A DNA stretch of 62,297 nt, from NCBI RefSeq assembly GCF_024298765.1, contig NZ_CP101213.1; one strand, written 5' to 3'. Shown here piece by piece: positions 9,001 to 12,000 of this stretch. Within the stretch, counting starts at the first letter, position 1. Each line of letters begins with the position of its first letter. This DNA comes from Escherichia coli (GTDB lineage: Bacteria; Pseudomonadota; Gammaproteobacteria; Enterobacterales; Enterobacteriaceae). A program made the position numbers.

Positions 9001-12000
9001 AAGGAAATGCAGGGATCAAGAGTGCGATTTTTCAATGCTGAAATTAATCACACAATATTAATGCATCGCCCACATCCAGAAAGTTATATTAAAGGTGGAA
9101 CGCTGAAAGCTATTAAACAGAACTTGAAAGAGGCTGGGGTTTTATGAAACATTTAAAATATAAAGGATATTTAGGTACGGTTGAGCCGGATTTTGAAAAT
9201 AATATCCTGTATGGAAAGCTGGCATTTATTCGTGATCTGGTGACTTATGAGGCAGAAACATTGGCTGACCTGGAACGGGAATTTAAAACATCGGTTGATT
9301 TGTATTTACAGTCCTGTGTGGAGGACGGAAAGGAGCCTGACACGCCCTTTAAAGGTGTGTTTAACGTCAGGCTTGATCCAGAGCTGCATCGTCGGGTCGC
9401 TGAAATGGCGATGGAAGAAGATTTGTCGCTGAATGCCTTTGTCAATAAGGCACTGGAAAAAGAAGTCAGTCATCATCGCGCAGGGGCTTAATCGCCCCTT
9501 TTTGTTGCTCGCAGGCGTTGATGTTTCTTGGTATTACGGTGTAGTGTGTTGTATTTACAAACAATGCTTTACGGTGTATTACGATGCATACTCTTTAATT
9601 GCTTGCAATCTCTTTTCACGTTCGTTGCTTTGTTCAGCTTTTTTCAATTCACTGAATATGTACTCTTCATCTTTACCCGTGAGTTTTGAACCGGAGAGCA
9701 AGCGATTAACAACTTTACGTCGAATTGCAGGGTAATCTTTGGTTTTATCGAGTATGGACAATATGCGGTCACTACTAAGAATCTGGCCTTTCCCTGATTC
9801 CACATAATGTAGAAAAAATGCGATTGCGGACACGCCCAAAAGCACTGTAAGGACGGCTACACCATCAAGACGAAACTTTGATATAAAGGAATACGCGACC
9901 ACTCCAATAATTGCTAAGCAGAGACATAAATAAATTAAGAGGTTTTTGTTGCGTTGTTTTTTTTGTGCGCGATCATGATCATCTATGATTGCCAGTATCT
10001 TTTCTGGAGTTGCTTGAGCCATTTTTTTTCCTTATCAGGGAGACGGAGTGTTCAATCATCTGGCTTTACAATGTAAAGCTGTGTTTGTCTTTACGGTGTA
10101 AATAATGAGATGTGCAGTTAAAAGTGTCAATCAGGTATCATATAGTAAAACACTATATGATTTTTCTGTAATAGGCTTAAAAAATTCTCGCTTACATTGT
10201 AAAGGTCTTTGTGTCTTTACAGTGCACCACGTTGTAAATCACTGCCTTCTGTGGAGATAATCATGTTTTTTTCTGTTGGTGTCGAAACACCGAAAGATGA
10301 TCAGACTGCATACGGCATCACTGTTCCGGCTTTTGATTGTTTTGGTTTTGGATGTGTTTCTGCGGCTGATTCTCAGGCAGAAATACCCGCTATGGCGCGT
10401 GAAGCGATATTGGCAATCGTGGAAGATATGGTATTAAGCGGTGCTTATTCTGTTGATGATATTCATGATGAAGGGTGTTTGACTTATTCGGATCACTCCA
10501 ATTATAAGCACTGTGATAGCTGGTTTTTGGTTGATGTCGATTTAACATTAGACATGCCGTAGTCCGGCTATCGGGTCATGAGGACGCTGAAGAATATCGC
10601 AGGCATATATTTACAGTGTAAAGGTGTTTCTGTCTTTACATTGTAAGGCTTATTGAATACTACACTGTAGTGCAATGTATGTGTTTTTATGACCTATCCC
10701 CGCGTTGTGCGGGGATTTTTTTTGATAGCTAACCGCTCGCCGCAGTCTAGCGACCGAGCATAGCGAGCGAGTGACGAGGAAGCGGAAGATCCACCGTTGC
10801 CAGGAGAAAAGCAGGTACGCACTATGCATTCTGCCCTAGTGATGCTTTCACAAACCACGCGGCCTGAACTATTACGCCATGAATCCAGCGCAAATCGGCA
10901 TCACGATTTTCTTTTTTCATTTTTTCGCCACTTAAAGCCTTGCTTACGTGACTTTTTACCAGATTTTCGTGTAATTCTTTTGCTTCTTCAATTGTGAAAC
11001 CACCAGGCAAATTTGGCGCTTCTGCTTCCAGTGATGCCAGAGCAATTTCATAAGCCCGGCGCTCAATATTGTCTCGCACGTCCAGGCTGCCGATTCGCTC
11101 CCTGATTTCTTTAATTAGTTTCTTGTCGTCGTCGGTAAATGTTGTCATCTCACTCTCCTTTGGCGTCAATGTTTACAGCCTGGCAAGCCTCTTTGAGCAC
11201 CCAGTCAATAGCGTCTTTCCATGCCCCTGTTTCGACGGGAGGATTCGTGTGCTTTACCTGATCGTAGAAGCGTACTGCGTTTACCAGTCCTCTTGTTGGT
11301 GCTGCTATCGCAGGTGGTAAGTTGTAGAGTTCCTGAATTTCATAGTTCGGCCTGTCGTTGCAGTCTTCTTTTGTCGGCACGTATTTCCAGTCACCAACCC
11401 ACGTTTTACCCTGAGAGTCCGTAACGTCTTTTTTCACGTAACGATACCTCCATGCAACAACCCCAGCTTCCAGCGATGCCAGTGCGATTTCATAAGCCCG
11501 GCGTTCAATATTGTCTCGCACGTCCAAGCTGCCGATTCGCTCTCTGATTTCTTTAATCAGTCCCTTGTCGTCGTCGGTAAAAGTTGTCATTAGTGACTCC
11601 TTTTCATATCTATGGTTTTCTTGAATCAATTTCGTCTAGTTTGAGTTTTATATTTTGCTGGTCTGATTTTGGTAATTTTCTCATGCTCTCTTCAGTTATT
11701 TTTTTCATATCAAGAAAAGCTCTTGCATAGAAGCGCAGGCTTGCCTCTTTTTCATGTTGTGCAACATACCAGGTTGCGCCAGAAAATGCCGCAGACAGGC
11801 ATAATGTGCACAAGGCACAAATTGCAATGGCTGTTCTTGTACTGAAGGGTTTTACAGCCTTAGATAATGACTTCAACTTTTCTTCATATAATTTGTTGTT
11901 TTTTTCCTGGTTGCGTTTAATTCCAGATATGAGTTCAATAATATCATCTGTTAATTTTTCTTTTACCTCAACACTTGTTTCTTTTAGATCGTTTTTTCCC

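Follow-up and report, generated by a model that had tools for sequence, protein, structure and literature searches.

Mosaic accessory proteins of lambdoid phages on an IncI2 plasmid

Homologous recombination between diverged short homologies is reportedly an established route to mosaicism in lambdoid phages, and mosaic genes of the Ea22, EaA and DUF551 types have already been described in phages. The Ea22 proteins join a common N-terminal part to dissimilar C-terminal domains, one variant carrying DUF551 (PMC10834534). Lambda Ea22, the only protein of the wider group to have been studied, is a tetramer and acts in a pro-lysogenic manner, its host partner being unknown (PMC10834534). The present report concerns two adjacent minus-strand genes, orf146 (11150–11590) and orf108 (10822–11148), in a 62,297-nt stretch of Escherichia coli DNA (contig NZ_CP101213.1, assembly GCF_024298765.1), the whole of which is referred to below as the window. 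Positions 10700–11700 match pMCR-H9, as well as some 170 further IncI2 plasmids, with 100% identity; many of these plasmids are about 60 kb in size and typed IncI2, MOBP and MPF_T, and the window is identified by the matches as an IncI2 mcr-1 plasmid.

The proteins encoded by orf146 and orf108 are, to judge from their relatives, members of a hyper-mosaic family of small accessory proteins of lambdoid prophages and Shiga toxin (Stx) phages, and they begin alike because both belong to this module-shuffled family. The home of the family evidently lies in the early accessory regions of these elements (exo-xis or 'ea', and nin-like), where its members carry the database labels EaA, ead/Ea22-like and DUF551. 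Taken jointly, this identity, the modular architecture and the account of recombination given below are assigned a probability of about 0.8. The genes do not represent a new kind of system, although their setting on a plasmid is less familiar. IncI2 plasmids are a main vehicle of mcr-1 (colistin resistance) and most of the 'hypothetical proteins' of their backbone have been ignored. An operon next to the origin of transfer (oriT) that ends in a variable gene array from the early-gene pool of lambdoid prophages offers a tangible example of gene flow from phage to plasmid or the reverse, and its genes form a small set of candidates for functions in plasmid establishment.

The two open reading frames and their shared N-terminal module

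Translation of orf146 starts at an ATG at 11590 and stops at 11152–11150, giving a protein of 146 amino acids (aa) that ends ...NIDAKGE* and comprises three modules designated N1, B146 and C146. The second open reading frame (ORF), orf108 (ATG at 11148, stop at 10824–10822; annotated as WP_000206697.1), encodes 108 aa made up of N1 and C108. Both proteins are mildly acidic, with isoelectric points (pI) of 5.15 and 5.93. Strong ribosome-binding sites (RBSs) for both genes can be read from the sequence. That of orf146, AAAGGAG at 11597–11603 on the minus strand, lies 6 nt before the ATG, and the same motif is found on the same strand at 11155–11161, 6 nt before the orf108 ATG and within the last codons of orf146 (KGE). 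Only 1 nt separates the orf146 stop from the orf108 start (GAG TGA G ATG), a spacing that makes translational coupling of the two genes plausible. Gene ends of the '...IKGE*' type, as at the end of orf146, recur in lambda Ea22 and many relatives.

An earlier note on this DNA had described two adjacent minus-strand genes beginning with the same 45 or so residues, about 110 nt being shared at approximately 90% identity. The common start and the level of identity are borne out, and the extents need revision: BLASTP aligns residues 1–42 of the two proteins (41/42 identical, E 1e-26) and nothing further on, and the corresponding DNA measures 126 nt at 91.3% identity, with 11 mismatches. Copy A of N1 (11465–11590, minus strand; orf146 residues 1–42, MTTFTDDDKGLIKEIRERIGSLDVRDNIERRAYEIALASLEA) is a predicted helical hairpin, and copy B (11023–11148, minus strand; orf108 residues 1–42) has K at position 10 where copy A has G. 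At the level of a repeat finder the similarity appears as a 138-nt direct repeat (11024–11161 and 11466–11603; 88% identity, spacing 442) that includes the identical AAAGGAG RBS. The module itself is acidic, 42 aa long and ends at the junction IALASLEA(E/G)P.

The codon differences between the two copies comprise nine synonymous and one non-synonymous change (G10/K10), which over 30 synonymous (S) and 96 non-synonymous (N) sites corresponds to pS 0.30 and pN 0.021 and to a ratio of non-synonymous to synonymous divergence (dN/dS) of approximately 0.05; this surplus of synonymous differences indicates translation of both copies in the frame concerned. Purifying selection at the protein level appears to have preserved the likeness of the N1 copies. 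Further comparisons gave ratios of 0.18 for B146–C146 against a prophage homologue, 0.16 and 0.24 for orf146 against its counterparts in plasmids L008 and L009, and approximately 0.05 for orf108 against those in L008, L006 and L005. By this measure all modules are under purifying selection, which argues that the genes encode working proteins and not decaying remnants.

Independently exchangeable modules and their phage relatives

Within orf146, N1 is followed by B146 (11303–11464, minus strand; residues 43–96; VAWRYRYVKK...DWKYVPTKEDCNDRPNYEIQ), a beta module with a Pro-rich linker at its end in which three W and five Y make up 14.8% of the residues, in agreement with the earlier description of one C-terminal domain as Trp/Tyr-rich. 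The protein is completed by C146 (11153–11302, minus strand; residues 97–146), a helical hairpin with the pattern GLVxAVRFYxQVK..NPPVETGAWKDAxDWVLKEAC. In orf108, N1 is followed directly by another helical hairpin, C108 (10825–11022, minus strand; residues 43–108; LPGGFTIEEAKELHENLV..SGEKMKK..DLRWIHGVIVQAAWFVKAS). AlphaFold2 predicts orf108 to be all-helical, with helices at residues 6–21 and 24–43 (N1) and at 53–72 and 79–107 (C108), the mean predicted local distance difference test score (pLDDT) being 60. The orf146 model (mean pLDDT 66) has N1 helices at 6–21 and 27–41, the beta module at 44–89, with predicted strands at 44–57, 63–65, 69–71 and 83–89 (pLDDT about 76–87), and a C-terminal hairpin whose helices (99–115 and 122–143) are predicted with low confidence. 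The possibility that C146 and C108 are distant homologues, both being ...VKAS.G..A-ended in some relatives, was rejected on a profile–profile comparison (hhalign) that returned a probability of 0.05%, so that the C-terminal domains do appear unrelated, as had been proposed.

Each of the four modules is found apart from the others. Among 384 retrieved proteins whose architecture was determined, the combination B146–C146 was present in 115, C146 only (alone or in other contexts) in 74, C108 only in 74, N1 only in 56, N1–C108 in 31, B146 only in 13, the complete N1–B146–C146 arrangement in 10, N1–C146 in seven and N1–B146 in four. The B146–C146 unit occurs behind at least seven other N-terminal modules, all of them ...(I/L)ALASLEAEP-ended. 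C108 also follows other N-modules, has 90% matches in Stx2a phages, and in prophages is mostly continued by DUF551 or other C-terminal extensions (P0130, P0127 and P0133). The sequences that follow N1 fall into 24 clusters, representing at least about 15 intact distinct modules, some singletons being frameshifted or truncated. A search of 1.84 billion cluster representatives yielded 302 clusters that cover the query separately over residues 1 to ~47, ~41 to 99 and ~85/99 to 146, and the ends of megablast matches in E. coli genomes pile up where one module joins the next (query positions 133/136, 300, 443–446, 570–573 and 582). orf146 and orf108 are strings of modules that can be exchanged independently of one another and that conserved linkers connect. 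The earlier suggestion that domains are swapped on a common scaffold is strongly supported, and the swapping extends beyond what the note had described, N1, B146, C146 and C108 each occurring separately and in many combinations.

The relatives lie in early accessory regions of lambdoid phages and prophages. Homologues numbered 3233 for orf146 and 893 for orf108, nearly all of them from E. coli and its relatives, with ead/Ea22-like, Eaa and DUF551 among the names given; the 146-aa protein in its exact form is recorded on at least 1000 contigs and has the UniRef name 'Phage EaA protein'. By tblastn the modules were detected in 242 (orf146) and 269 (orf108) phage records, mainly those of Stx-converting and other lambdoid phages. 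An N1-bearing gene is situated between exo/bet/gam and xis/int, near an Ea22-like gene, in an Stx1 phage, and directly before xis in phage cdtI, and in a chromosomal prophage the module genes are located after the replication genes. Both ORFs match PHROGs 660, 5117, 60 and 3323, all families of unknown function, the match of orf146 to PHROG 660 extending over its whole length (1.4e-44), and the best matches among predicted viral structures (BFVD) are uncharacterised phage proteins and one 'Ead/Ea22-like' protein. DNA matches were found in 1963 of 5426 complete E. coli genomes, at 2011 chromosomal and 460 plasmid places, mostly with 80–92% identity and covering the query in parts only.

A variable slot reshuffled by recombination

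The two genes occupy a slot that extends from a TraM-like gene to a GC-rich hairpin with an A/T run at 10696–10716, which marks the distal edge and was scored as a plus-strand terminator. Six variants of the slot were read in detail. In the window it contains [N1-B146-C146] [N1-C108]. On L008, a 146-kb plasmid typed IncY, the array is [N1-B146-C146] [XF1762 family] [95 aa] [N1-C108], and two IncI2 plasmids have [N1-other beta-C146] [65 aa] [69 aa] [N1-C108] (L007) and [N1-other beta-other C] [87 aa] [111 aa] [N1-C108] (L006). Two further IncI2 plasmids carry one gene each, [N1-C108] in L005 and an [N1-B146-C146] variant in L009. The number of genes thus ranges from one to four, and N1 starts both the first and the last gene in all four multi-gene arrays, the window included. 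The XF1762-family protein of L008 (2236–2727, CP057740; 163 aa, ending ...GIRIKGE) travels with the cassettes in the plasmid slot as well as in chromosomal prophages (matches H121, H128 and H137) and shares the '...IKGE*' gene-end junction of Ea22 and orf146.

Compared with the window, L005 is shorter by exactly 442 bp, a difference equal to the spacing of the direct repeat. Its N1 is a patchwork, following copy A in the upstream DNA and at nt 8 and copy B from nt 27, with another copy-A nucleotide near the 3′ end, which locates the crossover between nt 9 and 27. Length and patchwork together are what is expected of the product of recombination between the two N1 copies, and this common single-gene form is best understood as an exact 442-bp N1-by-N1 deletion product. 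In 40 records sampled at even spacing from the 596 matching plasmid records, the query with both genes was present in full in 11 and a single-gene form about 559 bp long in 14, and many IncI2 plasmids have no orf146. The shared N-terminal module is present on other plasmids, N1 being found at 929 places in 628 plasmid records; 521 of these records are of conjugative, IncI2-type plasmids and 98 of plasmids that are non-mobilizable and measure about 46–92 kb. N1 DNA, like the other linker sequences, serves as a substrate for homologous recombination, and it is at these conserved sequences, N1 and the linkers, that recombination has reshuffled the slot.

Operon and oriT context

orf146 and orf108 are the last cistrons of an oriT-proximal traK/L/M-like operon that diverges from mobC and the relaxase gene. 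The first cistron (13089–13490, minus strand; 133 aa) is in the TraK position according to the annotation and is without a family match. It is followed by a TraL-like ParA-family ATPase (12319–13071, minus strand; annotated TraL; NCBIfam PRK13886 TraL, 1e-53) and by a TraM-like coiled-coil/membrane protein (11610–12341, minus strand; annotated as 11610–12317) with a weak match to NCBIfam TraM (1e-3). The best candidate for a sigma-70-like promoter of the operon (13574–13602, minus strand; TTGACA, 17 nt, CATAAT; 11/12 positions) was obtained by a consensus scan. The leader operon is itself mosaic across 11610–13071 when compared with L007 and L009: an StbB-family ATPase replaces TraL in other IncI2 plasmids, and the TraM-like protein of L007 and L009 differs in its N-terminal two thirds and has an identical C-terminal stretch of about 70 residues.

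The mobC/relaxase-proximal, oriT-type intergenic region lies about 2–3 kb from orf146 and orf108, which are on the side opposite the relaxase. Because the relaxase is usually encoded in the lagging region (PMC11541004), the operon is, by analogy, probably in the leading region. Both genes are transcribed away from oriT, so that under the inferred polarity the transferred strand (T-strand) would be the coding strand. The intergenic region also contains six GTGTGGGT-type repeats with spacings of 12–43 nt (13541–13697) and, adjoining mobC, a GC-rich inverted repeat, GGGGACGCCCC (13788–13802).

On the distal side of the slot, in the DNA that separates the orf108 stop from the hairpin, some 58 nt (10732–10789) form a core that matches several thousand small mobilizable ColE1-like plasmids with 82–90% identity, always in unannotated DNA, and folds as a single-strand hairpin (z about −2.6). 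It presumably resembles the primosome-assembly (single-strand initiation) region of ColE1/pBR322 and, if that likeness is a true one, could prime complementary-strand synthesis after transfer. Further on, three copies of a 37-nt repeat (10065–10101, 10191–10227 and 10610–10646) with palindromic TTTACAnTGTAAAG half-sites flank an orphan HicB-like ORF (10263–10562; Pfam HicB_lk_antitox, 6e-10) missing from the pMCR-H9 annotation; the corresponding site of other IncI2 plasmids is occupied by an intact hicA-hicB pair.

Origin and function of the two genes

Several explanations for the shared start compete with membership of a shuffled phage family. It might be an artefact of annotation, the shared region being untranslated in orf146 and conserved as a DNA- or RNA-level element, and the pMCR-H9 entry from the RefSeq Prokaryotic Genome Annotation Pipeline (PGAP; WP_223666488.1) indeed covers only 11150–11473. 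The start chosen there is, however, the in-frame CTG of codon 40 (11473), and the shared N-module is lost from view as a result; the ATG at 11590 has its AAAGGAG RBS at 6 nt, other records annotate a full-length orf146 of 146–148 aa, the widely recorded 146-aa protein includes the module, and the nine-to-one preponderance of synonymous codon differences is the signature of selection at the protein level. An artefact is for these reasons extremely unlikely, and the full-length reading corrects an annotation that conceals the shared module. The genes might alternatively have arisen by local tandem duplication, one C-terminus having then been replaced or having decayed while gene conversion kept the N-termini alike. 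The head-to-tail arrangement with its 138-nt direct repeat would fit such an origin, as would the copy-specific nucleotide patchwork of single-gene variants, which indicates that exchange between copies occurs. The synonymous divergence between the two N1 copies (dS 0.38) is nevertheless as large as that from N1 copies elsewhere: copy A is equally close to copy B and to the N1 of L005, L007, L008 and L009, and is 92.4% identical to that of a chromosomal prophage (H165). Both gene types are, moreover, independently present in prophages, one of which (L010) has the end of C146 followed 1 nt later by the start of N1 with different partner modules, and unrelated genes separate the two N1-starting genes in other IncI2 plasmids. 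That the window copies are no closer to each other than to others argues against local duplication; a recent origin of one N1 copy from the other on the plasmid is considered improbable, and the term tandem paralogs used in the earlier note is right only in part.

The note had also likened the genes to polymorphic effector or immunity families, in which a conserved N-terminal delivery or scaffold domain is combined with alternative toxic or immunity C-termini. A conserved N-terminus with variable C-termini fits this formally, and the genes reside on a conjugative plasmid beside toxin-antitoxin genes (hicAB), but Pfam, NCBIfam and PADLOC detect no secretion, PAAR, Rhs, LXG, trafficking, toxin or immunity domain, N1 is merely a 42-aa acidic helical hairpin, and the proteins are just 108 and 146 aa long. 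No cognate gene follows orf108, which is succeeded by non-coding DNA and the hairpin, and orf146 is followed by another member of the same family. N-modules vary as much as C-modules, unlike in polymorphic toxins, and all relatives are phage early accessory genes, so that the likeness is not sustained and a toxin or immunity role is very unlikely. A role as anti-defence or establishment factors of the leading region, counterparts of phage early anti-defence genes with C-modules that track host defences, is possible, albeit supported by no tool result. It would accord with the location 2–3 kb from oriT opposite the relaxase, usually the leading side (PMC11541004), with homologues in first-transcribed phage operons that also hold ral, abc, gam and kil, with the combination of extreme module shuffling and purifying selection that befits arms-race proteins, and with the ColE1-type hairpin element just downstream as a possible priming site. 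Neither ORF resembles any known anti-defence protein in sequence, however, and there is no fold match; the genes are transcribed away from oriT, unlike T-strand-encoded anti-defence islands (PMC11541004); lambda Ea22 is pro-lysogenic with an unknown partner (PMC10834534) and has no sequence similarity to these ORFs; and many IncI2 plasmids manage without orf146. This role is on balance regarded as doubtful.

The function preferred here, itself a tentative proposal, is that of early-entry accessory proteins in which a common handle is combined with binding modules that vary. Like their phage relatives, orf146 and orf108 would be produced early, once the element has entered a cell. They would self-associate or dock through N1 as the handle that both possess, with the variable modules binding to differing host targets. 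Since the gene set varies between plasmids, both genes would be dispensable for the plasmid backbone. A broader and rather speculative view, held to be unlikely, is that the end of the leader operon is an N1-bracketed cassette-exchange hotspot common to conjugative plasmids and lambdoid phages. N1 would then have a dual role, as a protein handle (oligomerisation or docking) and as DNA homology for swapping, inserting and deleting early-entry genes; phage (Red/RecET-type) or host recombination would act on this homology, and the cassettes, including orf146 and orf108, would encode factors for establishment or counter-defence that serve phages and plasmids alike.

Several results weigh against the interpretation of the two genes as shuffled, functional phage-type cassettes of a leading-region operon. 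Neither ORF has a Pfam, NCBIfam or PADLOC family, family scans giving only sub-threshold noise (BrxC helical, E 0.07; pufB, E 0.014). A sequence search of PDB found nothing for orf146 and a chance match for orf108 (E 0.46), and Foldseek against PDB gave no match at E ≤ 0.001 and no informative fold match. The structural models are of low to moderate confidence only (pLDDT 60 and 66), which makes the handle role of N1 a guess. The operon promoter is a consensus match alone, and the leading-region placement is an analogy, the nic consensus of MOBP, YATCCTGY, having no match within the oriT intergenic region (13490–13860). Only six slot variants underlie the rule that N1 starts the first and last genes, which may have exceptions, and sequences by themselves do not tell deletion from insertion between slot variants. 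Nothing usable was found in the literature on EaA in connection with IncI2, or as IncI2 transcriptome or transposon data for these genes.

Comparison with known systems

P22 EaA resembles the window proteins in having a short helical N-module that ends IALASL(E/D)AE, beta modules with LYxAPPxP linkers and then more modules, and in its phage context, the early-left 'ea' region; the junction is identical at 8/9 positions. BLASTP similarity is not significant, however (E 0.12 for orf146 and 0.26 for orf108), only the 9-residue junction being aligned, and EaA is a protein of 317 aa with a GWISCSERMP stretch at its end that is also present in DUF551-annotated relatives and absent from the window proteins. 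The two architectures are linked by the chimeras P0144 and P0141, the former, from an IncI2 relative, consisting of a P22-EaA-type N-module and C108.

Lambda Ea22 and the Ea22 variants of Stx phages are likewise accessory genes of the exo-xis region that are transcribed early, and their '...IKGE*' end embeds the RBS of the next gene, as in orf146. An Ea22-like N-terminus is joined to B146–C146 in the chimera P0106. The Ea22 proteins differ in possessing a long central coiled coil, which the window proteins lack; neither ORF matches Ead_Ea22 (PF13935) in Pfam at E ≤ 0.1, and no stretch of orf146 could be aligned with lambda Ea22 by BLASTP at E ≤ 100. With no similarity to Ea22 and a match to EaA at the junction only, the EaA and Ea22 labels are transitive, by way of P0106 and P0144, and because lambda Ea22 is not homologous to the window ORFs its tetrameric state and pro-lysogenic phenotype are not transferable to them. 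A further group is that of the DUF551 (PF04448) prophage proteins, for example YfdS of CPS-53; in prophages, N1 and C108 usually occur as the N-terminal two thirds of such proteins, with 89–95% identity to orf108 across all 108 residues. orf108 differs in ending exactly at the linker that precedes DUF551 (QNA* versus QNALSGNSPVTP... in the prophage proteins), and its stop at this point leaves the family-defining domain absent, in keeping with the lack of a Pfam DUF551 match in either ORF.

Polymorphic toxins such as Rhs, CDI and LXG proteins share with the window genes the combination of conserved N-terminal and alternative C-terminal parts and a diversification driven by recombination, but here the proteins are tiny, N-terminal parts are swapped too, and delivery domain, toxin domain and immunity gene are all lacking. 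The layout of the operon is taken to be that of the IncP traK-L-M 'leader operon'. It agrees with traK-traL-traM of RP4 in gene order and position, in diverging at oriT from the relaxase operon, and in encoding a TraL-type ATPase along with a TraM-like protein. The RP4 leader operon stops after traM, whereas in the window and its relatives one to four phage-type cassettes are appended.

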